DNA of 62,207 nt, counting the filler, from Hausera hauseri (Eukaryota): the NCBI GenBank assembly GCA_046269625.1. It is 8 parts of 8 records of this genome, joined end to end, with 100 filler letters (N's around TTAATTAATTAA, not from the genome) between each part and the next. Parts side by side here need not be neighbours in the genome. Positions count along the whole stretch, not along the records: positions 1 to 4,279 come from JBJURY010660997.1; 7 more parts are not named here. The stretch is one strand, 5' to 3'. The translations under genes and the position numbers were made by a program. The notes beneath the pieces are model-generated. The model ran no database searches. It saw nothing but the letters and a program-made list of their open reading frames with translations, and was not told where the DNA came from. This document shows, piece by piece, positions 1-30,559 of this stretch (positions are counted from its first letter, which is position 1; each line of letters opens with the position of its first letter).

Positions 1-129
1 ATTATTGTTACGGAAATTCGAATTATTTATTGATTTTCCCAAAATTGACCTCCGTGTCCTGATTGACTGCACGATAGTCGAAATGTTATTGACACGCTCA
101 GGAATGCCGCCAGTGATGTCGCTCCTCAG

Positions 130-528
130 ACATCCTTGACTGCAGTCAGCCAATAAATTATAATGTGATAGAAAATCGGACCCTAGAATTGCCGTCTGGA
201 CGTTAGCAACTATAAACATCTAGTAGAAAGGGGAAGGAAATTTTGGTAAGATGAAGGATAATTTAGCCGTACCAGAAATGTGCGGCGGTTGACCTGAAGC
301 GGTGTATAAGGGTTTAATTCTGAATGCTGAATTTTGTACAGGAAAAGATTGTGGTAATAAGGAAATCGCTGCACCCGTATCAATAAGGAAATTAACGGAT
401 TGCGTTGTAGGAGCGGTGATTGCAGCCTTTAGAGTAAAGACAGCAAAAGAGGCGTATCGGAATTCAGAAAGTGAAGTAGTGCCTTTGCCAGAGTTTGCCG
501 TGACTTCTGGCGGAAAATTTAGTTTTTT
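130..528 (-). pseudogene. pol: Retroviral-type aspartic protease (pol start, copy 1)
   Basis: KKLNFPP...FLIDTGAAISLLP...IVANVQTAILGSDFL, with one in-frame stop. Confidence 0.88.
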
Positions 529-1563
529 GAAAAGGTGAACTAGGACGACTATTAGAAGAAAAGGTAGTGCGTCCGTCATTCGTATCTGGTTCGAAAGTGC
601 AACCTGAAATGCATTTACTGGCTTGATTTTTAAACAAATTGCAAACAACGGTGTCTGAAGAAAAACTTTTGTTGTAAAATTTGCACCCTAGGCAGCATTT
701 CTTGGCATTTTTATTAAATCTGCTGTGATAGTAGCAGATAGATGACCGCGCAGGCGATGATGACCGGTTTCTAGATGCAGAAGGGGCGCGGTCAGCAGCA
801 AAATCCTTTTGTTTATATTGTTAATTGTTCCTTGTAGTGCTGTATTTTTGGCACGTAACTGATTTAGTTGTTGTTCTATTGATGTGTTATTGTTTTGGAC
901 ACTGGTAGTGGCAACTTCCGCCGAAACGACTGGTAGAGAATTTACGTGTAGAACGTCGAGTGTTTTATCGACTAATTCGGCCAATTTTTCAAGAGCCGTG
1001 GAGTCCTACAGCACGGTAAGTAGAGCCCAAATTTGGATGGGTAGCGCATTAAGAAAGTAGTGGTGCAGTGGTTTGGAATTGTATTTTTTAGTGACGTCGC
1101 GAGTGTGTAGATGTGCTAAGGACGTGCGTATAAATTCTGATGGTCGTTGTGTGCCTATAGCATTGTCGTGGAAGAAGCGTTGTATGATGGTGTCCATTTA
1201 GGATTCTTTCATTTTAAGAACAGTGTTGGAAAGCTGTGAGTATGGGTCAGGAAGTTCAGATATTTCAAGCATGTTGTGAATTTGTGTTTTAATGTTGTTA
1301 AGGAGTAAGAAGAGGAGATTGTGTGCCTTGGTTAAAGGGTCGGTGATATTGTTTGCCTGTAACCATAGTTGACGGAATTGCATCGAAATGTTGCTGGAGC
1401 CTTGGTTGTCAATGAATAATTCGGTGCAATTAGGGAAAGGAGCGGAAGAGGTAGTAGGTGAAGCGTTGTTAACGGAAGTAGGGGTGAGTTTTTGAAGCAG
1501 TATTACAGGTTTTGGTTTCATGGCGGTTTCATCCGCGGTGTCTATGGTTGAGGATCAGTTCAT
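519..1563 (-). pseudogene. gag: Gag of copy 1 (stops and frameshifts)
   Basis: NCTELFID...WLQANNITDP...QRPSEFIR...YFLNALP, colinear with the Gag of copies 2 and 3; ends at AAAAAAC-TAA (528-519). Confidence 0.82.
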
Positions 1564-1565
1564 TC

Positions 1566-2537
1566 TGTGATGTCACATTCACCCAATCGGTTATTTGCAT
1601 GCAGAACTTGATATTTTAAAAAATTTGTTTTTGTTTAAATATAAAAATACATTATGGTAAATTCTGAAAGTAGTGGAATTTATTCCTTTTTAGCAGATTT
1701 TTGAGGTGATGTAAAGTTTTGTATTTTGGTATTATAATTATCAAAATTTTCAATTGATTTTCAAACTTCCGTCATCGCAATGAGCCACCCGTTTTTAAGC
1801 AAATTACCCAGGTATAAACGTACGAAATTGGAATTATATATTTAAAAACTCAGAGCCAAATGCAAATGGCACAAAGCTCATGATTTAGCTACTCAAATTC
1901 GTAATGAAAAACCACCATTACAACTGGGGTCTCTCTATTATTTGACAATGGCTGAGGCGAAATGAAAAAATTTCTTAATGAAGAAGGTTCGATATCTGGC
2001 GATGAAGCAATAGAAATCATAGAAAACATTGACGATGTATTGTTATCGGTGGACGAAGGATATAAACTGGAAGCCAAAATATTTCTGGCCAAATTGCGGT
2101 ATATTCAAAAAAATATATTAGGACGCCATTAACTCATTAGAAACGTTAGATCTAAACAATTTTCGACTGGAGTCGGGTTGTGCTAGACTGACTAAATTGA
2201 TTAATGAGTCACTTGGAATAATCGATTTGAGTTTTGGAGGAAATGTGCGGCAATAAAGACGATAGTGCATGTCCACGAAGTAACAAAGACGCCCCCAATG
2301 AAATTTTTGACAGTATGAACCGTAATCTCCCATCAACTATGGTACATCAGGATTCGTTACATAAATCAGCGCCACTCGGCAGCATACCTCTTCAACCGTC
2401 TCAACCGTCACCATCCACTATAAGAGGATCATACCAAGAATTAATGTCTCCAAAATATCCTTTCGGTGGTATACAAACCATGATGGACTAACATCAGACC
2501 CTTCTACAACAGGAAGTAAAAATGAGAAAGCCCTACA
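1566..2537 (+). mobile_element. Solo-LTR-like insertion, 972 bp, TGTGATG...CTACA
   Basis: TGT/ACA termini; flanks CATTC (1561-1565) and CATGC (2538-2542) form a 5-bp TSD with one mismatch; starts with the same TGTGATG as the LTR after the PPT at 13157; removing it restores the UBL-Gag frame. Confidence 0.7.
1780..2200 (+). pseudogene. TTC7: Captured 5' fragment of tetratricopeptide repeat protein 7 inside the insert
   Basis: TKLELYI*KLRAKCKWHKAHDLATQI / LTMAEAK / EAKIFLAKLRYIQ resembles the TTC7A/B N-terminus (RLETEIERCRSECQW...LLLGESKLE...IMAKLNYVEG). Confidence 0.6.
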
Positions 2538-2755
2538 CATGCGACCGCGGATGCGGAAGTGTATGTGGAGGTGGATATAAGTTGAGGAAGGTTGCAGGGT
2601 CCCAACGAGAGGTACCGTAAAGCCTTGGTGTGTGAGGTAAAAGTCAGGTGGCGAAGAAAAATGGAGATGACGTTGTAAATAGCCGCAGTGTTTAAGTGTG
2701 TTAATGCGGCTGTGTAAATATGTTTATTATTTAAAAAAAAGAAGAGGGAATACGG
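2538..2755 (-). pseudogene. Ubiquitin-like domain upstream of Gag, copy 1
   Basis: PYSLFFFLNNKHIYT, then after one frameshift YLQRHL...DFYLTHQGFTVPLVGTLQPSSTYIHLHIHFRIRG(R)M; homologous to the copy 2 domain. Confidence 0.7.
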
Positions 2756-2924
2756 AGAGGTCGTGTAGCCATGGGCGTGTCGTGGGGCGTCAGCGAACGG
2801 TGCCGCCTGACCCAATGGTATACGGTGGGCGGCCGGGACTTCGGCCTCGTCGCGGAAAATCGCAAACGCCGGGGTAGCCGAGTTCTTTGCATGCAATGTT
2901 GCTCCATCGGTCACTTTCAAATCT

Positions 2925-3800
<876 letters not shown>

Positions 3801-3814
3801 ATTAGAACCGTTTC

Positions 3815-4279
3815 TCAGATTAGACGGGGGCTTCCTTGGTTGTTGTTTGCATGGACAAATAAATCCTTGCCTCTGAGTAGCGTTTGTTTCTTAGCTTGTT
3901 TGAAGTCGACAACGATCATATCGTTAGTATTCCTACTGGAGGTCGCATGGATACTAAGCGATGTTTCGTTGTTGGGTTTTTCTGATTTGTATAAACCTAT
4001 GTCAACAATGAGGTTCTTTGTTAATCCATCAGGCACCATAATAAACACCCTCTCGTAGAGTTTTACAACTTCCACTAATTGACCCATCAGTAATTTCCGG
4101 TTTTCCCATGGTTGTCAACGCAACTATTTTTCTCGTTCCAGGTCTACTAAAGCCAGTTTTCATTAGTTTCATACCAAATGCCTTTAAAATATCTATTCTC
4201 AAAATAACTTCCGGCCTGATTGTTTTTACTACTATCAATTCAATCTCATGTACTTCCTTATCCCACTCCACGTTGACTT
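3815..4279 (-). mobile_element. Fragment of another Gypsy pol (protease C-half and linker)
   Basis: HEIELIVVKTIRPEVILRIDILKAFG resembles the retropepsin ILG-D-L motif. Confidence 0.45.
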
Positions 4280-7604: not shown

Positions 7605-8080
7605 ACGTTGATGAAGACTGGTTCTGCGATGAAGACATCGCGTTATACCGCACCACAATACGCACTCCTGAACAAACCTTCACTGTTGATCCGACATGGT
7701 TTGCTTCTTCAATTTTCAATCATGAAACAGTATTTCATTCTACTGTTGAAGGGCTTCGAAATAACGAAACAATACTCTTTCCAGTTACAGACAGAGGGAA
7801 CTAGATTTTACTGAAACTTTCAAAAACTACCGGCACTATATTTGAGATGCTTGACTCGTCTGCACATCCCATTGATAATGAAAGACCCAACCTGTTGGAC
7901 GAGATATGTATAGAATTACCAAACTTCCTCCTTTGTCAGCCGATCAAGCGGAAAACGGCATCGGTGGATGTGCCGAAACAGGAAAACAACATTGATTGCG
8001 GGCCCTTCGTATGTCATTTCATGATATCGATATTCTTGAAACCTCTAATCGACAGCCTAGATGCCACCAGCATGCGCCAA
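7605..8080 (+). pseudogene. Ulp1/C48 protease domain 2
   Basis: DWFCDEDI; FEMLDS; VPKQENNIDCGPFVCHF. Confidence 0.82.
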
Positions 8081-9436
8081 GAAGTTTTATCTCTAAAAAT
8101 CCATGAATCACTCAGAAAAGAAGACTCAACCAAGAAACTTCAAACAGGATACAAATACTCCTGCATCACGGACAATTGCAACAAAGAAAAATTCTGTTGA
8201 CAAAGAGGACTTGAAAGAGCATAATGAAATGGTTCACAAGATCTCGGGCAGTCAAAGAATTAGAATCATATGCAAATGCCTTAAACCGCTAAGGATTTGC
8301 GAGATGCATGACCACGTAAAATCATGTGACAAAACTGATGAGGAAACAAAAAACTACTCAAGGAAAAAATCTTCAAACTTGATTTAAGTGGCAAAAAGAA
8401 AGTCCTTAAATGTTCTCACCCAAATTGCGACAAAACAATAATAAGAAGGAGATTCAAAAGTCAATGTTGAGCCATAGGAAAGAAGGTCAATCCAAAGAGG
8501 TGAAAGCTGGTTATCTAGTAACATGCATTAAATGCCATGAAAAAATAAGCTGCGAAAAAATCTATTACACGTAAGTGAGATTCACAAAAACTCTAAGTGA
8601 TGGTCGCGGGATGAAGCCTCATTCAATTTCAACCTGAAACACAGTCAAAGCGCTGATTTCCAGATACATGCCACCAATCGCTGTTTTGTTTGATTCAACG
8701 TCAACAAAGCGCTTAATTTTGAAAGATGAGGACTTCATTCTACGTACAATATGTTTCGCAGATTTTGTGCACATCAACAATATGCTGCTTGATCTGCGTG
8801 GATCATGGACACGACTTAACCTTCCTAGCCTCGATTGAAGAAGGAACTTGCGAAACTGTTGATCCAGAAGCTTCTACAGGATATGGGGAAACCTCAAAAA
8901 CTGTTCATAACATAACATAAATGACAAACTACAAATCCCATTTTAGTAAAATAATGGTTGAAAAAAGAAATGAAAGTATTATAAAATTGCAAAATTACTC
9001 TGCATGTTACTGGCAAAATTGAAGAGATGCGAAATGACATTACATTTTGAAGTCCATATTACATAATCCTAGCTTTGTTGGCACAAGTATTTTCCACATT
9101 ATTAATCAGCATAAAGTTTTATACTTGTAGAATCTGTATAACTCGTAAAACTGCGACTAGCAGTAAAGTTTTGTTCCTTGTAAATATAACAATTTAATAA
9201 ACAAGCGTTTCATTAGAAATTACGATGCAAACTAAGAGATTAAAGTCAATGTATAATAAGTTGTGATTTCTTTGAGAAAAGCTGTCGTGCAAGAGATTAT
9301 GTCAATTTATCACTCTCTTAGAAGGGGGAAAATGCGGGTTCTTCCTCACCCCGGGGGGTGTGCTTATCGATAAATCGATAGTGCACACGGAGCACTGTCG
9401 ATCCGTAAAGTGCTAGGCGACAGTGCCGCTAGGCAC

Positions 9437-9536: not shown

Positions 9537-12500
9537 AGTTTTTCTGTTAAAAGCTGGATTGCTTCCCACCAATGCTTCACACATGGACTTCCTCATCGAT
9601 TCAGGAGCTGCCTTTTCGTTCCTTCCCTTGTCCTTCACTCCTACATCCACTATAGTTTCTTCTCCAACGCTTTTCTCTGCCGGTGGTCAACCGTTGCACA
9701 TCGCAGGTACCACGGAACTGATTTTCACATTCGCCAAATTGCCAAATAAGTTTGCCTGGAATTTTCATGTGGCTAATATTAAATCCCTTACAATCGGCTC
9801 AGATTTTCTTGCCGCGCATGATCTGCTAGTTGACTGCAAGTATCGCTGTCTGCTGCGCAGAAGCTACGTCGTGGATAATAACAAATATCTAACAAACAGC
9901 CCAGTAGAAACTCCGTTGTTTTCGGCTGTCAACTCGCGTGTGAATTTGAAAACTTGATTATCGTCTAATAACGGTGCATTTAGTACTTCATCCATTTCAT
10001 CCATCACACCAAACGTATCTAAGTCGGTTTTAAAACAACCGAGTAAACGGTGCGTTGATGGTGGCAGTTACGGTTGTTCTTCGCCAATACCGTTAACTGT
10101 CGCTTCTGATAATATGTCTCAATCATTTTCGTCGCTGGATTCCAATCTCAAATCTTATATCACAACTTCTTGTTTCCGCACACTTAAAAAGGACGTCAAC
10201 TTCAAGCCGCTTTCTACAACTTATCGCCATATAGTCATGAAACACCAAAGACCTATCAAACAAAAGGTCAGACCACTATCACCCATTAGGCGAAAAGCCA
10301 TTGAACCAGAGTTCAATGAACTCGAAAAGGCTACCATTATTCGAAGATCAAAGTTACCATGGGCTTCCCAATTGCATGTAGTAACAAAGAAAGATGGCAC
10401 TTACAGACCATGTTGTGACAATCGACAGTTGAACAATCGACCAGCCCTGAATGCTTACCCTTTACCTCTGATAAAGGACATCCTGCATAACCTAACCAAT
10501 ACTAATACTTACTCCACAATTGATTTGCATAAAGCTTATCATCAAATTCCGGTTGCACCTGATGATATTCCAAAAACTGCCCTTAATTCTCCATTTGGCC
10601 TCTATGAATTGGTATTTGGTTTACGTAGTGATTCCCAAACTTTTCAACGACACATTGATACCGGCCTGTCAGGCCTTGACTTTGCTCATCTATACACTGA
10701 TGACATATTAGTTGCCTCCACATATGTTAAACAAGATCAAGAACACCTCCGTATTATCTTTCACAGACTACATCACAGCAATTTTCAAGTCAATTTTTCC
10801 AAGTGTCATTTCTTTCAAAAATGTGTTAATTTCTTAGGCCACGTGAGCACTTCTCACGGCCACTCTCCACAACCGGATCGACTACAACAGTTGAAAAAAA
10901 TAACGCTATCAACGACTACTACGAATATGAGGAGTTTCTTAGGCACGCTCCAATTCATCCACAAATACCTACCGCATTGTTCTGAGCTTACGGCACCTTT
11001 CGCACATCTATTATCCGGAAAAAAGAGGCAGTTAATCCACTGGTCTCCTGATTTAGTCACCAAATTCGATCACCTACGCGAAGGCCTAAAAACCGTCGAA
11101 ATACTAGCCCATCCAAAGCCCAAAGCAGATCTTATACTTACCACGGATGCCTCTACCACAGCTACCGGTGTAGTACTGCATCAAACCTCTAATGGCCTCG
11201 ACGAACCATTAAAATTTTACTCCAGAAAACTCACACAACCCGAAAGCCGTTACTCTACCTTTGACCGTGAGTTACTCGCCATAGTTCTGGCAGTAAAACA
11301 TTTGAAACACTTACTTCTCTCTCGTCCATTTGTTATTCAAACTGACCACAAACCTCTCTTGCATATCATATCTTTAAAACAACCATCACCGAGGCAAGAA
11401 GGACACATATCATACTTGTCTACATTCAGTTTTGTTTTACAGTACATCTTAGGCATAGACAATTTGGCAGAAGATTTTCTATGAGGTCGGTTGGCTCCAT
11501 TACAATTGAGCCGATTTTCTCATCCGCAGCATTAAAGGCAAATCAACTATCCGCTCACTTCCTTAGCCTTTTCAAATCCTTCGAAATCATTGATATGTCG
11601 AATTCCGGTAATAAAAATATTATTCTAACTCCACATTTACAAAAGCCAGCCTTCCTTCATACGCATTCACTCCATCACCCAGGCTCGAAAGCAACCTTTC
11701 GCCTGCATCAACGTCATGCAGTTTGGCCATCAATGCGCAAAGATGTACAGGGTTGGATTAAGGAATGCGTAGACTGTCAAAAATAAAAAATCAACAAACA
11801 CATCAAACCGCAGCTTTATCATTTCCCCTGTATATTACGTTTTCATACGGTTCATCTTGATCTCGTTGGTCCTTTACCTTATGACAACAGATATCAATAT
11901 ATCCTTACTATGATGGATCGTGCTTCTCGCTGGCCTGAAGCCGTTCCTCTTCGTTCAACGAAATCTGTTTCGGTAGCCGACGTCTTCATAAAAATCTGAA
12001 TCAGCCGTTTAGGTTCCCCACGTAATATAATAACGGATCAAGGTCCGAAATTTGAATAGAAACTCTTCAAAGCACTTGCTAAACGCTTGGAGATATCCCA
12101 TTTCCATACTACACCATATCATCCTCAAACAAATGGCCTCCTTGAAAGGTTTCATCGAACAATGAAAATCTCTTTAAAAATCTTGGCTGACAATCATAGT
12201 AATTGTACGTCTATTCTACCATTTGTTCTACTAGGGTGGCGCAACACAGCCTCAACCACTACCAGTTGTGCTCCAGCCGAGGCACACTTTGGGACTCCAG
12301 TTCGGGCTTTATTTGAACTTTCTGATCTTGGCGACAACCCCATAGACGACAACATTCGTGCAGCACAGTCTGACTTCGTCGAGGTCAGCTCAGACTCGTT
12401 CTTTCGTCTCTTTAACAACAAAAAATTGTATATTCCGAAGGATTTATACTCCGCCAAGTTTGTGTGGCTGAAGGATCAATCGCCTTCGGGTTTTAGACCT

Positions 12501-13030
12501 TAATATGTTGGCCCATACAAACTGTTGAATCTCTCATCTCATACAGCTATCATTTTGCGCAAAGATAAACCTTACAACGTTCACATTTTAAATTTGAAGG
12601 CAGTTTTATTCATTGATGACTATCCAGATGCCAATTCTACCTCCAACTCCAACTCAATTCCTACTCCTTCCGATTTTCTAAATTATTTTGCGCCGTTGCA
12701 GCAGTCACTGTTTTGTCAAACTCAATCATCATCATGTCAACCATCCATCTCGCCTCCCTCTCCGTCATCATGTTCACTACTTTCTTCACCTCCATTACTT
12801 ACGTCGACTGTTTCATCACCTTCAATTGCATCGCCTTTTTTGCTTGATTCATTTTCTTCATCACCCTCATAAGCTTCATCACAACCAATACCGCACATTG
12901 AACCAGCTAATCTCACAAAACTTCCACCACAAAATACCACTCAACAGCCCAGAACAAATCAATCGAGTAAGACACGCAGAGTGACATTTAGTGCCTACAG
13001 CAAAGAAAAGTTCTTTGATGGTACACAACA
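9537..13030 (+). mobile_element. pol: Gypsy pol (PR-RT-RNaseH-IN-GPY/F), decayed; same family as copy 1
   Basis: FLIDSGA; YPLP, IDLHKAYHQI, YTDD; LTTDAS, DRELLA, TDHKPL; HHPG..CVDCQK, HLDLVGP, TDQG, NGLLERFH; YVGPYKL. Confidence 0.95.
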
Positions 13031-13146
13031 CCTGATACATACTAAAACCGAATAGGCACTAAACATTGTTTCTTTGTTACTTCATTGTTTTCTTCTTCAT
13101 TATCCTTTCATTACTTTTTACCTTTACATAGATTTTCTTTTGCCAC

Positions 13147-13165
13147 GGGAGGGTGATGTGATGCC
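13147..13165 (+). promoter_or_regulatory. Polypurine tract and start of 3' LTR (GGGAGGGTGA|TGTGATG)
   Basis: Purine-rich tract about 120 nt after the pol end, immediately followed by TG. Confidence 0.7.
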
Positions 13166-13862
13166 GCGGTCGCAGTCGTCAATTGCGTGAATGAGGCAGT
13201 TCATCAAAAAGTATATTAGACGACACAGCAGCTCACGAGAAATCGACAGTTCAGAAAATGACAAATCAGAGCTCAAAATTGATCATTCATTCGGTAGATA
13301 CATGTCGCGCAGTTCATTTCAAACCTAAGATTGTTACTTGATCTCGCATTTCCACGATTTTCCTTTCTACCCTGCAGAAGAAGTTGTGAAATCTCTGATT
13401 AGAGCTTTATCTCTTGTATGACGTGATCTCGTATCGTGTTATAGCAGTTTGCAGTTCCTTTTATTTGACTATCGATGGTTGGGATGCAGTCAAGTCGTGT
13501 TTATGTTCATGCCGTGTTTACGTTCACAGATATCACAGGAATCGAATTCTGACACAGTCGTTCAGCATTACGCAGTCTTATATCACAGAAATGACGACTG
13601 ACCTGTTTGATACCCATTCAATATTTAAAAACAGCATGAAACTCAGTTAATAAATATTGTTATTTGTGATATTGTTTGCTTTTTGTTTTAATACTGTGCT
13701 GCAAATTGACAATACTTCGTGGATTTTGTCCTTATTATTAAATTGATGAAATATTGACTATTGTTAAACTTGACAATTTTTGAATTTCAAGTAAGAAATA
13801 AACGATATTAAATCTGAATTCATTTTGAATATTTATTGTTGAAGCTAATAATGGAGCAAAAT

Positions 13863-13880
13863 TGGTGTCTGAAGTGGGAT
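13863..13880 (+). promoter_or_regulatory. Possible tRNA-Leu primer-binding site TGGTGTCTGAAGTGGGAT
   Basis: One mismatch to the common Gypsy PBS TGGTGTCAGAAGTGGGAT; no gag follows directly. Confidence 0.4.
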
Positions 13881-16387
13881 TGTTATGTCAAAAAAGTGTT
13901 TCCTTTTACGATCATTACTCAACGCCAAAAGTATTAATACGACATTAACAACCGATTCCGAAGTGTTTGGAGTTCTCAAAAACTCCCGGACTCCGGATAT
14001 TATGAATAACCTTATTGTGATACAATGTCTTTCATTAAACTGCGATGATCCAAGTATAATTATCGAAAAGAGAACCGGACTGTATATTCTCCAATTATTG
14101 TCAGTTTTGGCCACAAATTCAGAATTTAATAAAATAATGTTTCTTAACCAGCCAGGTTATCTTCATGTCCTACATCCAATAATCATGAAATTCTATTCTA
14201 TCAGCGTTAAACAATGTGCTGTTTTGAGTATCAGGTGCCCTAAAACTGAGGTGAAGAACGTCCTGAAAAAATTGATTACTACATATTTTTGAATACCGAT
14301 GCTGTGGATCAATTGGTTCCGAGAAACCAAGACTTCTAGAATGGCGTCTGTCGAATAAAGTTAATGGAAGTTTAGTGTTATTGGCAGCACACGTCACGAA
14401 ACAATGTTCCGAAACATGATCAACTTATTAATCACTATCTAAATTTACAGTTGGTGACAATGACTGTTTGGATTGCTGACTTGCTTTTACTGAGACAAGG
14501 AATTTCGTCACATTCTTTCCAGTTCGATCAAGTTACTAACTGTTTCTGCTTGAATACGAGTCTCCCCGATTTTCTCGTATTACAAATCAATTCACACATC
14601 AAATGCGAAACAATATTTGCTCGATTAAGTCTTTTGTTGAATGGGTAGCATAACATTAGCCATTCGCCTGTTCGTGATAATCTTCTCAATAAGCTCCATG
14701 AGATTTTGAAATCTCTTCATCACTGCCTATGAATTATATTTCTCATATAGACTTCAGTGTTCAATTGGAACAAATGAGTAGACAAACGGAATATCTTGGA
14801 CAACTGTTGTACGTCGATCCAGATATCGTACCATCATGGCCTTTTAGTTTACCCAATAATAATCCAATCAAAATCGGTGGACTAAATCTTCTTAGGTATC
14901 TCTATAAAATCGGTGTCAACCAGATCACACAAACACATTTCTTTCTAACATTTTATCTTCTGGAAAGATCTCTCGAAATCGTGTTGCAACAATTGCATTC
15001 TTGGTTATTTTAGGGGATTTTCAATAAAAGCTTGGTATATGAGCAAACCGATGATTTTCTTATTTATGCCGACTGTAATTATTTGTCGAAGGAAGTAAAC
15101 ACTTGGTGGACACACGCATTTCGTTTGAATGATTTGAAACTGAAGTACGGAGAAACATGGTCGTTTGAAGAAATTGGTAAAGATTTGCTGCGTTATGGAA
15201 AATCTCTTTGTTTACTCAACCAAATTGATCCTGCTCATTTATTATTACAACACACCGAAGTCATTAAATGTGGGCCACAGTTTAAACTGAGCTATTCGAT
15301 TAAAAACGATTCACAATACCAAACGCGACGGTATTATATGACTGTCGAACAGCTGTTAAAGAACCTGTTAATGTCACAGGAGTGTTTCATGAATCTGAAA
15401 AAATCTGCTGAATCTGAAAGACAAATGAAGAAGGAAGCGTGAACAAGAAAAGCGTGAAGACCATGAATTGATTCAAAGAGCAATGACAGCTAACAAGAAA
15501 ATTATTGATGACATAAAAACCGAACTGATTGAACTTTACTCCAAGAAAGTTGCTAATGTTGAAGCTCGAGAAAAGGTTTTAGGAGAGAAAAAAAGAGTCT
15601 ACGTTGAAATTGTTAGGATCTATGGAACATTATGAATCTTTTAAGGAAGATAAAAAATGCCGATGAAATTATTCGGATTGTTCTAAAGGAAATTACAAAC
15701 CATGACAAAGATGTTTCAAACAACCTCGATAAGCAGTCAAATGTTTCTAGTAATGCATTTAATTCGGTCATTCAAGAACTTATGTACCCTGATAAATATC
15801 AGACTTCTTCCACTGACAATGATAAAGTAGATTTTAACCAAACATCCTCAGACCTCAGTTGGATGGCACAAAATGTTAAGAAAACCACTTTCCCAAGTCG
15901 CTCAGAATCTAATATTCAGGAATTGCTTTATCCCGACGCACAACCATCGTCAAATCATGATGAAATTATATTTTTCTCCTTATATCATAATAGACAATGT
16001 CAACTAGATATCATAGACTTTGGAATATTTCCATCTCAGACAAAGTCATCATTGAGCGAAGAACAAGCTTTATTTGAATTTGATATAATCAAAAATTTAT
16101 CATCTCATAATTGTAATGATACAGCTGAGAACAGGAAATGTTCTTTCGATCAACCCAAGTCACAACTGGTCTACTGTGATTTGTCCCAAGATTATCTGGT
16201 GGCATTCATCGCTTGTGTATTCGTCCATCCGATGAGTCATTCGATGGAAAGTCAATTCGTTGGAAAGACTCAAAAGTGCCACAGTCAAAGTAATTTTAAT
16301 TGGATTATAATTGGAAAATTTTCTCTACTCATTGCACAATCAATGAATTGTCTGACTTAGGGATCGAGCGTGCCCGCCTCCGCTGCG

Positions 16388-16615
16388 CCATATCCCTTAT
16401 CCCTGTTTGTCTTTTCCAATAATATACACCTGTATACTTTCAGTGTGACAAACAGAGAGACTTTACATTGTCTTTACAGACATTTATCCCTTTTGCTTCA
16501 CACCTCGGATTTTTATTTATCGCATCATGGCTCTATCCTTAACGTCTATGACTCGCTTTCTTATTTTTCTTTCCCAATCATCCATCTCACTCTCCACTTC
16601 CGTCTACGGGATGGA
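16388..16615 (+). CDS. Ubiquitin-like domain upstream of Gag, copy 2 (within ORF 16370-16639)
   Basis: LFVFSNNIHLYTFSVTNRETLHCLYRHL...DFYLSHHGSILNVYDSLSYFSFPIIHLTLHFRLRDG matches the ubiquitin/FUBI pattern (...LIFAGKQLEDGRTLSDY...TLHLVLRLRGG). Confidence 0.75.
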
Positions 16616-17668
16616 TCGGACCCCGATATATTATGCTGAAAATTTCACTAAGACCAGATCTGGTCGTCGTCCTGCTGACCTTACACCATCTGCCTCTCCT
16701 AATCTTTCTTGTACAGACTTCTTCCTGGACAAAACTAATTCGAGTCGCACCTGGCTACAATTCCATTTGCAGTGGCTTAAAGCCAATCACATAACAGATT
16801 CTTTCTTTCATGCTAATAGCTTGTTGCTTCTTCCAGCAAATATCAAACAGCAAATCAATAATCTTGCCGATATACTCACCTCTTCAAATCAATATGACAT
16901 GCTCTATGAATCAGTCCTACATATTACCGACCCTTCCATTGACAGCACAATACAAAAAACTTTAATGAACATGCTATCGGAACTCAAAAGCCGTCTGATT
17001 TCCTTAAAACCGCAATTTCTTAACTGGGTTCCTTAGGCGTCACTCCTACAAATAATGCCGATCTTCGTCGGTATTTTCTTCCTTACTCACCTCTATCAGA
17101 GAGTTACTTACTGTCGTAGACGATTCAACGACACTCGAGAAACTCGCCTTACTGGCAGATAGAAGTTTCGACATCTCACAATCAAATAGCTCACAACCAG
17201 TAGCTGCAGCAATCGCTCACACGCCATCACACACAGATAGCACTTTATTTTCACAACAACTGCATATAATGCATAAACAATTCGACACACGTCAACATAC
17301 AGTTTCTACAATTACAGCTCAACTTAGTGATTTATGTGTGCCTCGAAGAAGTGAAAAACGTGTTTCGCGCAATCGTAGCCTTTCCAGGCATTCCTTTCGA
17401 TGCAAATCTCGAGATGGAAGAATAATTTGCTTTTATCATAACAAATTCCACAGAAACGCAAGAAAATGTCTTTTGGGCTATCGGTTTTACGACAAACTTT
17501 ATGCAGTAGACAGTCCAATCTGCATTTATCACACAAAGTATCAGTCCACGGCTAGGTCGTGTGTGCTATGATGCAAATATTATAAAAGTAATTCTAGTTT
17601 TTCTCCATCTTCTTCGCCTCCCCGCTCTTATCATTCCTCTTCTATTTCCCAACAAACAAAAAAACTAA
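16611..17668 (+). pseudogene. gag: Gag of copy 2 with two CHCC knuckles, ending at the slippery site
   Basis: SCTDFFLD...WLKANHITD; CFYHNKFHRNARKC and CIYHTKYQSTARSC; AAAAAAC-TAA at 17659-17668. Confidence 0.82.
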
Positions 17669-19319: not shown

Positions 19320-19470
19320 TTATTTGTTCTTCATCGACCATTGAGCCGGCAGTAAGTCGTTTCATCACTGCCATTATGCATTATACGCTTATCCTCTGGG
19401 ACTTTACTGGAATGAATTCGAATCCAACTTCGTTTAAAACGGTAACTCCGTGTAAACACAAGAATGAAAA
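19320..19470 (+). pseudogene. WDR70: WDR70 (GAD-1) WD40 fragment
   Basis: IEPAVSRFITAIMHYTLILWDFTGMNSNPTSFKTVTPC vs WDR70 LDPSGARLVTGGYDYDVKFWDFAGMDASFKAFRSLQPC. Confidence 0.72.
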
Positions 19471-19632
19471 CACGTCGAGTTCAGTGCCCATGGAGAAAAT
19501 GCATTTGTCATTAGCAATGATATTCGGGCTTTTATATTAGATCGCGGGGGTGAACGTTTTTGGAGGCGATTCGTGGCAATCCGTGCATTTAATGTTGTAT
19601 TTTCGATATAACAAATCGATTTTCGTTTTCAG

Positions 19633-19820
19633 GTTCTGTCATGAACGAGATGGTTTTTACTGCTCGATCCGATGAAGCTGAATGTATTCCACGAGAAACC
19701 GTACCACAAGCGTTACAATGTTTGACGAAAGTGTCGGTTCATGGTGGTCCAATTACTGATTTACAAGCTAACCGACAAAATACCATGCTTACGATATCAT
19801 CGAAAGATCAAATTGCTAAA
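19633..19820 (+). pseudogene. EIF3I: eIF3 subunit I fragment bounded by splice-like sites
   Basis: VHGGPITDLQANRQNTMLTISSKDQIAK vs EHSRQINDIQLSRDMTMFVTASKDNTAK; preceded by ttttcag and followed by gtaaat. Confidence 0.65.
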
Positions 19821-19989
19821 GTAAATTGTGGTTTTTCTTTAAAATGCACTATAGATCGACATGTTTATTTTTGTGTCCATCTCCGGTGATTTTCAACTGT
19901 CTCTCTAATTCCGGAAATTTGCCATTGGATTTGAATTCAGATTGAGATTTATCGCCTGCTTTCTCTGATTCTGATCAGATAGTTTAGCT

Positions 19990-20640
19990 TTATTATCAAT
20001 ACTTTATCAGAGTCAGTTGGTGGTGGTGGCTGTACTCTCCAAATATTAATTTTATTGATCAAATAGTTTATTTCCCGTTCCAATGCCCGAATGTATGGTT
20101 CGAAATTGACTGTCATAACGGTAGACTTTTCGTTTTGTTTCATTTTCTCCAATGTTCTATTCGTACTCTGGAGTCATTTTGTGGTGTCAGCAATTAATAT
20201 TCCCAATGACTCATATTCTGCCTTAGTGGCAATTTTGTCTGTCCAATCACGGAACATATTTTTGAGAGTATCGTAGAAAATATTGGATGTGTTTAGCACC
20301 ATGTTCAGTTTACCTGTAACATCCGGTCTGTATTTGTGTTCCCTCACTCCAAATTCGATATCCGTCATCAATTTCTTGAGATCATCGAATTTCGTCACGA
20401 ACTCATACTTTCCTGTTCCAAAGTCCTGTTCTTCATACCAATTCGATACCTCGTTAGCAGCTTTTAGTACGGCCATTCCCTCGGCTTCTGTCGAACTTCT
20501 ATAGTAAATTGGCATGTTAAATACATTTCGCAAAATGGAATATGTATGATTCTAGTTCGTTTTTCGACTTCTCCAAAGATGTTTTTTCATCGTCCTTATC
20601 CTTCAATTCTTTGAGCTTCCGTCTGAACTTCTCCACAACG
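19990..20640 (-). pseudogene. HYOU1: HYOU1/GRP170 C-terminal fragment
   Basis: KLKELKDKDDEKTSLEKSKNELESYIF; SNWYEEQ; VREHKYRP; ALEREINYLINK. Confidence 0.85.
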
Positions 20641-20644
20641 ACTT

Positions 20645-21905
20645 CTGGAGGATTAGGAAATCCTGTCCACGTACTGACGGTCTTTATATTCTGATGGATA
20701 ATTTCCACCTTTTGTAAAATGCAATTAAACCCGTCATACGTCGGACCGTAAATAGTGCTTACATGAAATTGTGATTCGTTGTGCAACTCTAAAGAATTCA
20801 ACATTGCCAAATACGCCCAACGGCACGGGTTTCGCGTGATCAAACACGATGCAATTGAATGAATTGTAAACACTGTCATTGATAACCTAACGGAAACCTT
20901 CCAATTTACTATCGACTTTAAATTCATTATTAACATCATCATGGTGTAAATGATGTTCGTCCATTTCACTGTCATAATTAATGGAGCCTGTACTGGCAAA
21001 CTCGTTGTACTTTGTCGGTAAACAAAATTCGGGTGGAATTTTTTGTGTATGGCACGCAACAATACCCGCCGTGTTTAACGGATTCATAAGATCTATGCTT
21101 CGTTTACCAAAGATTTTGGTTGCCAATGTAAAAGCACCATGCACGAAAAATCGGCCGGGCTCGGCAATTAGCTTTATGTTACTTTCTTCCGGAAAATACG
21201 TGTCGAGAATAACGTAAAATTTCTGACACATTTTCGAATTCGGCCTGTTTGCTAATATAATTACAAATACTACTCAAACCCGGAAAACCACCGCCAATGT
21301 CAAGGAGGTAAGGACTGAACCCTATATCTCGAGCCAGTGCAATTATCTTAGCACAATACATTGCCGTTTCGGGAAATGCATCAATTTCTTTGCAACCACT
21401 ACCAACATGAAAGCTAAAACCAACGACATCCATTGAAAGATCTTTAGCTCTTTTTAATAAAAACGAAACTTCTTGAGGTTCAACGCCAAATTTGTTTCCA
21501 ATAACACAACTAGCGTGATACGTTCGTTGGGGGGATAATTTTAACACTAATTTTGCCGATGGCCATTCAGCTACAAGCTTAATCAATCCACTCTCTGTGT
21601 CAAATGTTGTCACACTTACACCCGCACGATGGGCATGATGAATATCTTTTTTGAATTTAAATGGGTTCGCATACATGATCTTCTTTGACGCCGCAACGTA
21701 ATTCATAAATACAGCTTTGATGACTTTCTTTATTTTATCTCGACTAGCGCAATCAAAACCAACTCCCAGTTTTCCTAAAATAGATATGATTTTCGTATCT
21801 GGTTGACATTTAACGGCGTAGAATGGTTGAACTCGCGGCAAGAGTGTGTTCCATCGAAGGAATGGGTCCACGATACTTCATAAGTTGACTTGGTAAAAAG
21901 CAGTA
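20645..21905 (-). pseudogene. ODC1: Ornithine decarboxylase, near full length, frameshifted
   Basis: PFYAVKC, GFDCAS, SFHVGSGC, LDIGGGFPG, IAEPGRFF, YGPTYDG, TWTGF. Confidence 0.92.
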
Positions 21906-22143
21906 TTGTAATGCCCAATTTTTTCTCTGATTAAATACAATGATGTTTGAAATGAACACGGTCCAGGATAAAAACCGGTGTCGGTTTTTGATTTCTGAAT
22001 GTTTGGTTCTTTGCTACTTTAGGCATGTGTATGTTAGTTTAGAATTTTCCAAATGTAAAACGATTTGAAACTTCAGAAATAAGGATCAGGATCCCAAGGA
22101 AGTTCTCGATTATAATTAAATGTGTTTAATGGAGCAACAGGTT

Positions 22144-22660
22144 TCCGGTCGTAGCCAATTTCGACAACTGACAATTGGAGATTTTCAATCATCATTCCGA
22201 GTTCTTTATCTTTAGTTACCTGATAACCAATTATCGATACAACAGACGATGTGGAACCGACATCGTAAAACATGAAATACTGAACAGATGCGTTAAAAGT
22301 ATTGCGGCTGAAAATTCCATAATTGAGCGCAACTACAGCGTTGCTATTAAATGTAAAACAGTAATACCCGCAATATCAGCAGCTTGCATCACTGCCAACC
22401 GTTTTTGTGCCAACCGATGGAACAATAATAACTCCACTTTTCATGGGCATTTCTGAAAAGGATTCCACTATTTCTTTCGCATGCTGCAAAATCATGGCCA
22501 GTAACGTCAACTGTATATGCGATATTTGTATCATGTTGAAAGGCCAACTGATTATTTTTATCCATAAACAACTTGTAATATGGAAAGTTCTTCATAAAAT
22601 CCCTAACGACTTCATGGTTAATGTCCTTTCCCAATAAAGTCGTAATGGAACGATTTAAGG
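22144..22660 (-). pseudogene. HYOU1: HYOU1/GRP170 N-terminal ATPase-domain fragment
   Basis: LLGKD...FPYY; ALNYGIF; MFYDVGSTSSVVSIIGYQVTKDKE...GYDR. Confidence 0.88.
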
Positions 22661-25600
22661 TCATCGAATTCAGACGATACATTGGTCATTTCAATATTTT
22701 GTCCCTCTTTCTGTTGAGATCACAATGCAGACTTTGTAATCGAAGCAATTCTCTCTCCAGCACACATGTTCCCCATAATTACCGTTCTCTTTACGTACTT
22801 TGTGTACATTGCCGTTTTCTATTGTTGCTGGTATTTTCTGTTTCCCATCAATTTCTCGATATACTCTGTCGTTAACAACTTCCAGACTGTTGATTTTCGA
22901 TTGCAACTCAATACACTTGTTATTCATTTGTTCTTCGACGAATACATGGGAAACACATTTTTAGCAGTGTTTTTTAGAAATGATGTTTGCAGCACACTCG
23001 TTGCCTATTAAAAACGACATGAACGAGTGTCGGTATTGACACTGTGGGTTTGATCCCCACCTGTTTTGGTGCGGCGTTTACGCTACGTGCAACCAGGCGT
23101 TCGCTGTTTGGTTACGGTAGTATTTCAATTAAGTCGAGGTATCTTAGATGCACTCCTGCTGCGACTCGATACCGGTGCGGCAGGTGTTTGGTTGCGTATT
23201 ATCGTACGTTCCGTTTCCGGAAGTACGGGCGTTGGAATAATGTGTTTCAGTACGGACAAGAATCGGGTCATATACTACGGGAGTGTCCATATTGAATGGA
23301 TCAATTTTGTCGTAGTTTTCTCGAAGCTTGACTACTTCTGACATGCTTGTTACGTCTTGGTGGGTAGGATCTTCCGTATCGGAATTATGATAGCCGAATG
23401 CAGGTTTTGTGTTCGACAAGTAGACTATGTGTTCATCATTGCCGCGCAATATTATGGCGTTGTGCTCAGTGATCTATATGAGCTTGTAGGGGCCCGTGTA
23501 GTATGGTTCAAAACCGTGTCTTTCTTGGCTTTTGGGCCAGACAAAGGACGCATCTTGCAGATTCTTGGGCATGATTGTTTTTTTGTAATTGTTATGGAGT
23601 GCAGGGTTCGTGTCTATTGACAGGAAATGCTGCCGAGCTTGGTTGAGAGCAGGAATGGAAGTTACTTCCTCATTGCTCATCATATCTTGTGGGAATGTGA
23701 GGTGGTAATTAAATAGTAGTTGTGCCGGAGAGACATCAGTGCTAGTGTTGGGAGTGTTTCTTTACCCTAATAACACAATGGGTAATGCATCCAGCCAGTT
23801 CTTGTCATCGTGACATAGGATTCGTAGGGATGATTTGAGTGTACGATGAAATCTTTCAATCAAGCCATTCTCCTGTGGATGGTAGGGCGATGTATATATA
23901 TGCTTTTACCCAAGCAATTTGATTAATTGGTTAAACATGGCTTATTCGAATTGGGTCCCTTGATCTGTTATAATGTTTTTAGGTACTCCAAACCGAGAAA
24001 TCCATGTACTTAGCAGTATAGCCACAACGCTTTGCGTTGTTATTTGGAGAATTGAAATGGCTTCGGGCCATCTTGTTTTCCGGTCGAAAATGGTTAGGAT
24101 GTACTGATATCTGTTACATTCGGGAAGTGGTTCTACTATATACATGTAGATGGTTTCAAAACTTGATCCAGTAGGATAGTGTGGTATTGGAAGTTGTATT
24201 GTCTTGTTGACTTTGTACTTTTGGCAAAGTGAACATTCTTTTGTCCACCGCTTTATGTCGCTGAGTATGCGAGGCCAACAAACTCTACTGCTTAAAAGCC
24301 GTGCTGTGGCTTTTGATTCAGGGTGATGGATGTTGTGAATAGTGTCAAACGCCTGTTTCCGTAGGTTTGCTGCCAGAATTAGGCGTGGACAGCCATTGAG
24401 GATGGTATTGTAGTGTAGTGACTGTTTTAAAGAACGTAACATCGCCTTCATGTGGAGGGTTCGATTGGAGAACCAGTTATGTGTTTTATCTGGGATGAGA
24501 ATTCCGTAAGAAATATGTCGCTCTTGACGAGGCGATGGGTTTTTCATACTCATCATGTGAATGAATGGTTTGGGATCCGTGTGGATTGTAAACACATTTC
24601 CTTGCAGGAAATATCTGAAGTGTTTGACACTAATAATTATGTCTAGTAACTCTCGGTCGAAAGTTGAGTAGCGTTGCTCAGCCGAATTGAATTTGTGGGA
24701 AAAGAATACAATTGGAGCATTTTTGTCATCTATTGACTGGGCAAGTATGGCGCCTGCAGCAATTGTTGATGCATCTGTTGTTAAGATGAACGGTGCATTT
24801 CATTTAGGATAGTGCATTGTAGGCATGTGAAAAAGCGCCATTTTTGCATTGGCAAATGCCTGTTTAGCCTCATCCGTCCAGTTTACCTGAGATTTCTTGG
24901 GTCCTTGGCTTAGAGCAGATAGAGGTGACAGGATTTCCGAGCAATGCGGAATGTAGCGATGGCAGTAATTGATCGTTCCAAGGAAGCTGCGAAGTCCAGT
25001 CACTGTGAATGGCTTCAGTATTTATTTGATGGATTCTAGTCGCTCAGGAAGTGGACTCTGACCATGTGGTGTTAACCGAAGTCCGAGAAATACGGCTTCA
25101 GTTTTACAGAATGAACATTTGTTTATGTTTAACTGTAGGTTTTTTTCCTTCAAGCTATAAAACACATGTTTGAGATGTGTTTTTTGAGTCGCTTCATCGG
25201 GTGATGCAATCAATATATCATCTATATATGGAATTGCATAATGCATGTCGATGGGGACTTGGTCTATTTGGCGTTGGAATGTATGACTTGCATTCTGTAA
25301 GCCGAAAGGCATGCAAAGATACTCGAGCAAACCAAAAGGCGTTATTACGACCGTTATTAGAATGTCTTCGGTAGCCACTGGGATCTGGTGGTATGCCCTT
25401 TCCAGATCGATTGTGCTAAATATTGCTGCACCATGTAGGCAATGTAATATGTCTGTTACCAACGGTGTTGGGTATGAATCGTGGATGGTGACGTTATTTA
25501 ACATTCTATAGTCACCACAAGGTCGGTATAATCTGTCCTTTTTGAGAACCATGTGCAATGGTGATGCTCACTGTGTTGTAGAGCGGCGTATAATGCCTGT

Positions 25601-27184: not shown

Positions 27185-27398
27185 ACCTCCTTTTAGTCTG
27201 GGAGTGGCGAGTAGTGCCGCGTTGTTTGTAAGGAAATTATCCGAAATTGGACTATCACATAGACGCAAAATTTTCTCGTTGTGAAAAAATGTGGTACGGA
27301 TATGAAATGGCGAGCTGTTGTAGCATTGCCTTAATAAACATGTGTGTCAAGAAACGATACGCTTTCATGTTGCGTAATCCGCGTATGAAAAATGGCAT
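27185..27398 (-). pseudogene. Ubiquitin-like domain ending RLKGG, in frame with the Gag of copy 3
   Basis: MPFFIRGLRNMKAYRFLTHMFIKAMLQQLAISYP, one frameshift, TTFFHNEKILRLCDSPISDNFLTNNAALLATPRLKGG|VYTY; about 71 codons. Confidence 0.78.
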
Positions 27399-28432
27399 CA
27401 CTTGCGGTTTTGTTGTATCATCGGAATTGTGTGCCGATTTGACTGTGTTGGCGCATGAAACTTAGATTCGATATTTAGGCTTAGACTTTTGTTAAGTACC
27501 ACTCGTTGTGATTGCCTGAATAATAGCCGCGCTGAAGATATTGTCAGCGGGTGTTGTGTGATCACATTTGGTGATATGAATGAGTGTGCCGGATTGTTTT
27601 CGCCGGCATTACTCTGAATTTTAGCCTGACTGTTGCCATCTAATATGTGCGGTGTTTCAGCCGGATTGTTTTCAATGGCTGAGTTTATCGAAATGTACAA
27701 ACCAGTATGTACGGTTCTGTGCGAAAGGGACGTGTGTGCGGTATTCGTTGCCACCATTTTAGGAGTTTTTGCCTTATTGAAGGCCTTAGTATTGACCCAC
27801 AACATGGTGGCGGCAAAACAATAAACAAAAGCGGACACGAAACGATGAAGGAAGAAAGCTGAGTAATGGACACAATGTTTATTGTTATCAACATCACCAC
27901 CTGCCGAATCCATCGAAGCGTATGAAACGTCCGTCCAGGACAGCGCTGGGTTACTTTGGAGATTTCGACGTGCGCAGGTCGCAGCATCGTCCGAGCTTGA
28001 GTCAGGCAGCATGGGTTTTCTTGGTGACGGGTCCAAACGGCGTTTGCGACGTAGTTTTGGCGAATCGTCGGGGCTCGAAGTCCCTACATGCAGCTGTTCG
28101 TAATTTCGACGTATTGGGATTAACAGGCTCTCCGAGGGAGCCACGAATTCGTAAAGGCGGTCGGTTGCCGCCATCAGTCTCTCGAATACTGGCAGGAAAA
28201 CGGACGAGTCGAAGAGACGTCGATTTTCCCCGTCCTCGTAGAACCGATAAAGCGTTCCAACAGGTAGAGAGTAAGGGTCGTCTCGCTCCAGCCCGACTAA
28301 GTGTCGTATGAAGCGGCTCTGTGCAGCAGCTCCCGTATCGTCAGAAAGTCCGAGTAGGACCGGTATGGGACTCGTTTGTCGGTGTTGCGACGTCTTTTTC
28401 CACGGGAGGCGGCGTCTCGCCGGGTTGGGCAT
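27398..28432 (-). CDS. 344-aa ORF of unknown function upstream of UBL-Gag (probably composite)
   Basis: Long open frame with basic KLRRKRR, a hydrophobic stretch and a repeated ENNPA; no recognisable domain. Confidence 0.3.
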   Translation of the reverse strand: MPNPARRRLPWKKTSQHRQTSPIPVLLGLSDDTGAAAQSRFIRHLVGLERDDPYSLPVGTLYRFYEDGENRRLFDSSVFLPVFERLMAATDRLYEFVAPSESLLIPIRRNYEQLHVGTSSPDDSPKLRRKRRLDPSPRKPMLPDSSSDDAATCARRNLQSNPALSWTDVSYASMDSAGGDVDNNKHCVHYSAFFLHRFVSAFVYCFAATMLWVNTKAFNKAKTPKMVATNTAHTSLSHRTVHTGLYISINSAIENNPAETPHILDGNSQAKIQSNAGENNPAHSFISPNVITQHPLTISSARLLFRQSQRVVLNKSLSLNIESKFHAPTQSNRHTIPMIQQNRK

Positions 28433-28775
28433 GGCTGCTCTGAATTAACGGTTGAGCTCGGACTGTTATTTGGGCTCTGTGTTTCCATCGGTTTGGGTTG
28501 TGACCGTTTGGGGATCCGGTACCCTGACGTCAAGTTAACGACTTCATTGATTTCTGGTTTGGAGGTAATTGATGTGTCCGGTTTCCGTGTAATAGGTTCG
28601 CCGATTTTTGGCTTGGCGATAGGCGTCGCAGAAATGATTGATTTCTCCGTCATCCGGCTCTTTCCAACTGAATTCGATTTTTAGGACATCATGTATGAAC
28701 GCTTTTGAATAATTCTGTCTTTTCTTAAACTGTAGATTCAAACAAACGAGTTTAAATCCACAGATTATTTTATTT

Positions 28776-28875: not shown

Positions 28876-30260
28876 TAAGTCTTGTAAATCTTTTAAATGC
28901 TGTTGGAAATTTGGTGATGCTATTATTACGTCATCGATATATACCATCGCGTGCGGAGCGTCTAACAGTAGTTCTGTCCTCCTCTGGAATGTTTGCGGCC
29001 CATTCTTCAATCCAAATGGCATTCTGTTAAACTCCCATAATCATTCACCGATTGAGAATTTTGTCATGTGTGTCTTCTTCTTTCACTTGTACTTGCCATA
29101 AGTCCTTTTCTAGATCGATAGTCGTAAGTATTGTCGATCCGTGTAACTTGTCTAGTATTTCGTCAGTTCTTGGTAACGGATATGTATCGTTCAGTGCTCT
29201 ATAATCTGTACAAAATCTCCGTCCCATCTTTTTTTTGACCATTACTACTGGAGCTCTCAATGAGGAGAAACTTGGTCGAATTATCTTGTTTTCTCTCATT
29301 TCTTTTATTATTTTTCGCACTTCCTGCTTTTTATCATACGTTAGTCAATATGGCCTTTTCTTTATTGGCTTATCTTGACCCTTCTTTAATTTAATGGTGT
29401 GTTGTATTATATTCATTGTACTCAAATCATAAACAATTTGTGCAAATCGACAGTTATTTCTCTCTAACAGTTCGATTAACATCTTCTTCTGTTCCTTAGT
29501 CAGAATCTCGCATTTCTGTAATTTCTCCTCCCAATTGATATTGGTTGTTTTGATTCATCCTCTGACTCTGTTTCCTTCTTTAGTTTCTATGCCATTATTT
29601 TTTCTATTTTGTCTACCTCTGAAATTACCGAGTTAGTTTCTCCTTTTATTGTTTTTTCAATAATCATTGCTTTTTCCTATCTGGTATATTTTCGTAATTT
29701 TTTTCTTTGTTTGCGGCGTTACAAATTTTTAAGTGGATTTTTCAATCCCTTACTTCGACTACATGAGGGGCGACAAGAACTTCGTATTTCTACATAACTT
29801 GTGGAAATGGTTCAAAATGTATAACCTCGATTAGTAGTTTATTGTCTATTTTCGGGGAACCACGATTTCAGAACGTGGTGGGATTATGATATCTTTTATT
29901 AATGAGACCGTTACTTCATTTTTATCTTCATCAAATGTCTTGAGTTGGCCTGTTCTTACATTTATGTAGTTATTTTCTAATTGGTTGAATATATCACATC
30001 CGATTAAGATTTCATTGGTTAAATTCTCTGCTATCCTTATGGTGTGCTTTAAAGTTTGGTCACCGATTTTAATCTCAGCATCCAGGTCCATCTTGATTTC
30101 TTCTTCCGTACCGAATGCTCCGACGTTTGCCAGCGTGGTTGCTGGTTCCCTTAATTTTTCTTTAATTCTTTTGGTAGTTGGCTCTTTCCCATTATTGTGG
30201 TCGTGGATCCTGTATCCAATAAAGCCATCAACGAATATCTATTTACCTTTATTTCTACCT
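28876..30260 (-). mobile_element. pol: Gypsy protease plus reverse transcriptase (different family), cut at the contig edge
   Basis: ALLDTGS; ILIGCDI; RFCTDYRALN, YPLP, MPFGLKN, YIDD. Confidence 0.9.
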
Positions 30261-30559
30261 CCGGTCTTATGGGTGACTGGCGTGCGTTTTTATCGTGTGT
30301 TTTATATGTAGGTTCACTCTCGTAAGGTGTTGGATTTTCGTCAAGACACTGTTTCATATACTGTACTTGTTGCGTGTGATACAGTCCTACATATCGAGGA
30401 GCAGAAAGGTTCACTGAAAACTGTTTGTTATATAACTGTCCGTGGTATTTATCTATAGGATTTAATTGAGGTAAGTCAGCTACAAATCTTTGTCTGTACT
30501 TAGGTTGTCGTAACTTCAGTGCTAACTGCTTAATTTTAGATATTTGGTCACCCCATAGT

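Follow-up and report, generated by a model that had tools for sequence, protein, structure and literature searches.

Features of piece 1 and the insertion beside gag

The window (the whole stretch of DNA that was analysed, 62,207 nucleotides) consists of eight pieces separated by an identical 100-bp linker, which is made of N and a six-frame stop word. Order and distance across the linkers would therefore be meaningless, and the pieces were treated as unlinked contigs. Piece 1 carries a decayed CsRn1-like Gypsy element that is interrupted by a 972-bp unit, and its features are as follows.

121..1554, minus strand: gag (CHCC motif at 736) and protease (DTG motif at 387) of the decayed CsRn1-like Gypsy element
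1561..1565, plus strand: left copy of a 5-bp target-site duplication, matching 2538-2542 at 4 of 5 positions
1566..2537, strand left unassigned: insertion unit, 972 bp, with TGT...ACA ends (empty-site joints and end tests)
1566..1779, plus strand: AT-rich leader before the TTC7 ATG, 23-25% GC, candidate for an LTR U3 start or a captured 5′ UTR
1780..2232, plus strand: decayed TTC7 5′ fragment, codons about 1-151, ATG at 1780 (Pfam, Atlas and alignment)
2231..2488, plus strand: second open stretch of 86 aa, without a Pfam or Atlas match (ORF-length shuffles)
2538..2542, plus strand: right copy of the 5-bp target-site duplication (empty-site joints)
2544..2760, minus strand: module upstream of gag, ending beside the insertion, 44% identical to 16502-16618
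2977..3800, minus strand: decayed CDC5L 5′ fragment in the element's orientation, ATG at 3800 (E=4e-26)
4005-4279: repeat with an X1 summed depth of 47,000-339,000, truncating piece 1 about 240 bp upstream of the CDC5L ATG

The unit is probably in the plus orientation. It has a 5-bp duplication at its flanks, and the 4- and 6-bp registers at 1566-2537 gave no match. TG..CA ends with such a duplication, taken alone, were rejected as proof of a unit because they occur at chance level: positions 1-4279 contain 518 TG..CA pairs with a 5-bp flank match, 30 of them TGT..ACA, so the sequence by itself is insufficient for calling the boundary. Two public runs were compared with the window, X1 (an independent run, 7405 contigs placed) and X2 (a second organism label, 250 contigs placed), and the evidence from them comes from the best 15 of 46 joint rows and the best 16 of 7710 pieces. 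At many sites, every X1 contig differs from the window, so that X1 probably comes from another sample than the window. Two X1 contigs join 1563 to 2544 with 3 letters between, and one joins 1550 to 2549 with 21 letters between; both joints correspond to the removal of exactly 1566-2542 (977 bases, the unit and one copy of the duplication). These empty sites, found in three X1 contigs among the 15 joint rows, demonstrate that the insertion consists of 972 bp and a 5-bp duplication.

As inverted repeats, the unit ends match at 3 bases (score 19, against 19.5 for the null), and no terminal inverted repeat beyond 3 bp was found in 1566-2537. Helitrons have a 5′ TC, a 3′ CTRR and no target-site duplication; neither Helitron ends nor poly-A was found in the unit. 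Since it fails the Pack-MULE and Helitron end tests, the term "Pack-type" that had been proposed for it serves as an analogy only. There is no direct repeat between the unit ends (score 19, null mean 22), no primer site or polypurine tract (PPT) inside the unit and, in piece 1, no primer site after it and no PPT before it. When the window was compared with itself, neither paired LTRs nor a further copy of the unit came up. The first 7 bases (TGTGATG) are common to the unit and the LTR candidate that follows the PPT of piece 3; beyond these bases, the unit had no DNA similarity above shuffled controls in eight flank comparisons within the window.

In the piece-1 element, the unit has gag on one side and the upstream module on the other. 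It is therefore nested in coding sequence on the gag side and is not an LTR or UTR of that element. In gag itself, at least eight X1 contig rows have about 30-39 extra letters at 805-815 that are absent from the window, which indicates a small deletion, private to the window copy, near a frame break. A word-based protein search with gag returned none among 2180 candidates.

A short module lies upstream of gag in all three CHCC-Gag elements (2544-2760, 16361-16618 and about 27185-27340). These modules end in an RG/GG-like motif, and one empty-site X1 contig encodes Gly-Gly at the junction. By motif resemblance only, the module at 2544-2760 may be ubiquitin-like, and judging from these motifs it is possible that it acts as a ubiquitin-like cleavable leader. 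The label "UBL" used earlier for these elements gained no backing from Pfam, PDB or the predicted fold: the module had no Pfam match and no PDB match, and its folded model had a pLDDT of 39.

CDC5L had been noted earlier upstream of this element, and this proved correct. The fragment is colinear with its relatives, lacks an intron-size gap and travels with the lineage of the piece-1 element in X1, where it is joined to the element (joints 2854-3374 and 2913-3705, and a piece bridging 2651-2976) and is present in multiple variants. A primer-like motif at 2814 was discarded because it has similar matches elsewhere in the window. In the terminal repeat at 4005-4279, loose ends in X1 cluster at 4041.

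The TTC7 cargo and its variants

The reading frame of the TTC7 fragment is interrupted by a stop at 1843 and is shifted near 1963 and again near 2121. A single-frame translation of 1780-2253, in which stops were replaced by X, gave a Pfam TTC7_N match with E=0.0025, below the curated cut-off. The sole match among 1.84 billion Atlas representatives was P0121 (E=5.9e-18), a 728-aa full-length TTC7 (TTC7_N, E=1.4e-66). Aligned in three pieces, 1801-2232 shares 76 of 139 residues (55%) with amino acids 8-151 of P0121: 30 of 54 for 1801-1962 (amino acids 8-61), 24 of 48 for 1977-2120 (amino acids 67-114) and 22 of 37 for 2122-2232 (amino acids 115-151). The fragment is colinear with P0121 and has no intron-size gap. 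The likeness ends sharply at 2232, and X2 record 12 (84% alike) stops fitting there too. Contigs of both runs have an indel at the first frame break, so this break is not common to all copies. The cargo of the window copy is now a pseudogene fragment, and this state of decay speaks against a role of the window copy in protein mimicry. Other searches were negative: PDB sequence searches with the TTC7 pieces returned unrelated matches and none to TTC7, a word-based protein search with the TTC7 frame found none among 188 candidates, and none of 198 candidate stretches of metagenome contigs matched the first TTC7 piece. The earlier note had described an LTR-like unit with a TTC7 5′ end; the empty sites and P0121 bear out the insertion and its cargo, and the LTR part of that description, for which paired LTRs were not seen, is treated below as probable.

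The second stretch had been claimed to be coding-like and unrelated to TTC7. Comparison of its three frames with TTC7 gave scores that were reached by 82, 18 and 125 of 200 shuffles, and it is accordingly not TTC7. It is mildly coding-like, its ORF length being reached by 8 of 300 shuffles. Ahead of the TTC7 ATG, the leader contains a GT..AG intron-like 37-mer at 1657-1693.

The TTC7-bearing unit exists as many divergent variants in X1 and X2. At two TTC7 sites, 1945 and 1983, up to 21 and 25 X1 contigs, respectively, have a letter other than that of the window. Summed depth, which is not a copy number and was obtained without a single-copy control, was 530-970 in X1 over the left part of the unit and TTC7, 2145-2649 over its right part (about 2289-2537, roughly three times the TTC7 part), about 4000 over gag and 230-360 over CDC5L. 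Eight long X1 pieces listed had depths of 7.5-13.8, and the rough ratios to these are 68 for TTC7, 208 for the right part, 352 for gag and 26 for CDC5L. The TTC7 part is about 2.6 times as deep as the CDC5L part (784 vs 299). The claim made here is accordingly one of many variants, plausibly tens of copies. The spread of the unit that was proposed earlier is thereby upheld, and a single-copy fragment, the outcome that the earlier note had set against it, is contradicted by both runs.

The depth in X1 shifts abruptly near 2289, and the second stretch overlaps the deeper part. This suggests that the deeper right third is a constant LTR part that is common to sister repeats with other cargo or none. 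X2 record 13 bridges 2128-2326, the junction of TTC7 and the second stretch, and so the chimeric junction is present under the second organism label. In X2 record 14, the match to 2237-2525 is followed by 200 other letters, which gives the right end of the unit another context.

Host and other elements of the window

The other pieces of the window contain the following features.

13146..13874, plus strand: piece 3, PPT, LTR candidate and Leu-type primer site
13875..16357, plus strand: piece 3, coding-like internal region of 2.5 kb between primer site and gag
19328..22504, both strands: piece 4, host-gene mosaic 3′ of integrase
19328-19456, plus strand: WDR70, weak (E=0.03)
19710-19826, plus strand: eIF3i (E=6.5e-4)
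20890-21877, minus strand: ODC (E=2e-47)
22190-22504, minus strand: Hsp110/HYOU1-type piece, N-terminal (E=1.6e-4)
36739-39138, minus strand: piece 6, intact synaptojanin exon of 2.4 kb

The protein encoded by the synaptojanin exon shares 47% identity with its best match among named animal proteins and 64% with P0001, a relative that terminates at almost the same residue, which suggests that this very large exon is conserved. A quick tree was built from 26 rows (the window protein and 25 of 120 listed matches), and in it the window protein clusters with six parasitic flatworms at 99% SH-aLRT. The host is thus probably a flatworm, with the caveat that the window protein has a long branch in this tree. 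tRNA and Rfam scans found none (whole window and 1-29000, respectively).

The earlier note treated three Gypsy-type elements as copies of one family that builds its LTRs from host debris. This was not supported: the elements lie on separate, unlinked pieces, their proteins are 22-44% identical and their coding parts 57-58% identical in DNA, they share no LTR, and the unit is nested in gag-side coding sequence of the piece-1 element. The CX2HX9CX3C Gag motif was found at 736, 26445 and 26349, with a relaxed match at 17428. As judged from sequence, the CHCC-Gag elements are one lineage comprising several CsRn1-like families. Host fragments adjoin two of the three CHCC-Gag contigs, in addition to the nested unit. 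With 3 mismatches allowed, a tRNA-Trp primer motif matched 8 times, where 6.6 matches were expected.

In piece 3, the LTR candidate (13157 to about 13861) has AATAAA at 13649 and 13797 and is followed at 13863-13874 by the Leu-type primer site, an 11/12 match that lies 706 bp after 13157 and is the single such match in the window, although 17 of 100 shuffles yield one somewhere. The primer sequence is that given in the available part of PMC8905726. The primer site at 13863 would make the LTR about 0.7 kb long and the following 2.5 kb internal, and for this reason it was rejected that the 3.2 kb after 13157 form a single giant LTR. The internal region has a 247-aa ORF, a length reached by 0 of 300 shuffles. 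Host debris had been claimed for these 3.2 kb, and they gave no informative Pfam match, no Atlas match and no host match. From 9537 to 17660 on the plus strand, the order is protease-pol, PPT, LTR, primer site, the coding-like region and gag; piece 3 is either two tandem elements with one LTR in common or a repeat that was collapsed and circularly permuted.

Piece 4 had been said to carry HYOU1, ODC, eIF3i and WDR70 fragments. ODC, eIF3i and an Hsp110-type piece are confirmed and WDR70 weakly so; the stretch 19950-20700, presumed to resemble C-terminal HYOU1, had no HYOU1 match in profile and protein searches. ODC appears to lie between the N-terminal Hsp110/HYOU1-type piece and this C-terminal HYOU1-like candidate, all in a single orientation (19950-22700, minus strand), apparently the arrangement that a double template switch would give. 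The eIF3i match stops exactly at a GTAAAT..TAG intron-like 34-mer (19821-19854, plus strand), which hints at unspliced sequence in part of the cargo. Comparison of the two flanks in piece 4 gave no copy of the 5′ flank in the 3′ flank (score 37; eight shuffles scored 26-35). Upstream of gag, a 348-aa open frame without a Pfam match (27398-28444, minus strand) occupies the position that CDC5L has in piece 1 and adds a third type to the variable regions at this position. A primer-like motif at 27756 was set aside because similar matches occur elsewhere in the window.

Piece 5 contains a Gypsy-type protease/RT region (28876-33077, minus strand). A fragment of a Monjiviricetes (chuvirus-like) fusion glycoprotein at 30151-31158 (E=8.5e-25) lies upstream of its pol, which recalls the placement of env in planarian Burro elements. 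Viral contigs gave one distant RT locus, at 31% identity. A Ulp1/SUMO protease domain (7805-8197, plus strand, E=4e-7) lies in a decayed element of piece 2, and a mariner-type transposase fragment is present at 58872-59414 (minus strand, E=1e-12).

Origin of the unit and comparison with known systems

We consider it probable, with reservations, that the unit is a solo LTR, left by a retrotransposon whose repeat had taken up TTC7 mRNA. This is the likeliest origin given that the unit lacks terminal inverted repeats, Helitron ends, poly-A and internal direct repeats; since paired LTRs were not seen, the solo-LTR step is one that we infer. Reverse transcriptase would have switched template onto a co-packaged TTC7 mRNA within the U3 of the LTR, and in later rounds the cargo would have been copied to both LTRs and then spread. 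One TTC7-bearing copy would have integrated into the CsRn1-like element, and recombination between its LTRs would have removed the interior and left a single repeat. The parent of the unit may belong to another lineage, since CsRn1-like elements have a 4-bp target-site duplication and the unit one of 5 bp. The missing introns are no proof of an mRNA origin, given the intact 2.4-kb host exon in the window and the intron-like 37-mer in the leader.

Other origins would account for parts of these data. An ordinary solo LTR may have gained TTC7 once, or have inserted once together with it, after which the TTC7 copies would have multiplied only through segmental duplication or because the interrupted, non-autonomous Gypsy element carried them along. 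The depth of the interrupted element in X1 (gag about 4000) agrees with this, as do the shallower TTC7 part relative to the right part of the unit and the fact that none of the contigs listed has the left end of the unit in another flank. However, X2 record 14 places the right end in another context, the TTC7 depth is about 2.6-fold that of CDC5L in the same element and empty sites exist in X1, so that we regard such passive multiplication as fairly unlikely. An internally deleted LTR-mediated retrocopy, in which the start of a 5′ LTR, internal TTC7 and the end of a 3′ LTR were brought together and the cargo was never in an LTR, would explain the abrupt depth change near 2289, and internal replacement is the documented norm in the available part of PMC5131818. 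Such a retrocopy is nevertheless improbable, in that it requires two extra deletions and that a primer site, a PPT and a direct repeat are absent inside the unit.

The multi-gene mosaics nearby, the TGT ends and the possible leader intron would also fit a Pack-type non-autonomous DNA transposon (Pack-TIR, Ginger-like or Helitron) carrying genomic TTC7. The 3-base end match with an inverted score at the null, the absence of Helitron ends and the presence of a 5-bp duplication make this origin very unlikely. An assembly chimera, or a single-copy pseudogene beside a repeat by chance, might be suspected from the short pieces of a fragmented assembly and from the fact that, among the contigs listed, none spans the whole stretch; the exact empty sites, the junction bridged in X2 and the many variants in two runs largely refute this, and we hold it to be extremely unlikely.

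A broader proposal, that of a Pack-LTR system, is speculative and in our view doubtful. A flatworm CsRn1-like lineage would swap host 5′ ends and their start codons (TTC7, CDC5L, ODC, HYOU1-type) as cassettes into its LTRs and leaders. The cassettes would serve as promoters and starts and would be read into a putative ubiquitin-like Gly-Gly cleavage site ahead of Gag, and tens of copies would produce small RNAs against essential host genes. Under the solo-LTR origin itself, each round would place host sequence that lies in an LTR at both ends of the element; such sequence adjoins the promoter and persists as solo LTRs once the element has gone, and for this reason it would scatter gene starts more strongly than ordinary internal capture does. 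A further caution is that fragments of this kind raise the apparent gene number and the mapping depth of flatworm genomes.

Pack-MULEs and Helitrons are known as amplified mosaics of host gene fragments. The unit differs from them in that it lacks terminal inverted repeats, a long target-site duplication and Helitron ends, and its capture was likely RNA-based. The interrupted element and its relatives resemble the CsRn1 clade, which, in the available sections of PMC2582038, has a CX2HX9CX3C Gag motif, a DT/SG protease and 4-bp duplications. They differ from it in the module and the variable long regions upstream of gag, and the primer site of that clade is of the Trp type, whereas that of piece 3 is of the Leu type. 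The giant planarian Gypsy elements Burro/GYPSM1, as covered in the available part of PMC6431247, likewise carry host-like domains, one of them ubiquitin/SUMO-like. Those domains are intact in a giant polyprotein with a CCHC Gag, whereas the window has decayed 5′ fragments and a CHCC Gag. Term searches of two planarian genome papers, within the text available, found no such cargo.

Host-derived sequence inside an LTR is described for the Cassandra, Helenus and Ajax TRIMs (available part of PMC10886601), of which Ajax has a spiralian host and 5-bp duplications. Their cargo is 5S rRNA or tRNA with a Pol III promoter, whereas the unit has a protein-coding 5′ end and is about 1 kb long. In the open-access literature, LTR-internal host sequence was found as small RNA genes only, with no animal protein-coding case, and Repbase entries or subscription papers may cover this lineage. 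Also related are the LTR-mediated retrocopies of animals and maize Bs1 of Tan et al. 2016 (PMC5131818). In the available sections of that paper, partial host mRNAs in LTR retrotransposons are more truncated 3′, chimeric and re-amplified, and capture in animals involves template switching, 3′ truncation, multi-gene chimeras and secondary amplification. The cargo there replaces the internal ORF between two LTRs, whereas that of the unit lies between TG..CA ends and is likely inside an LTR. The TTC7-bearing unit is thus likely a variant of known LTR-mediated capture, with protein-coding cargo likely inside the LTR; if this is general, an animal counterpart of Pack-MULE mosaics becomes testable.
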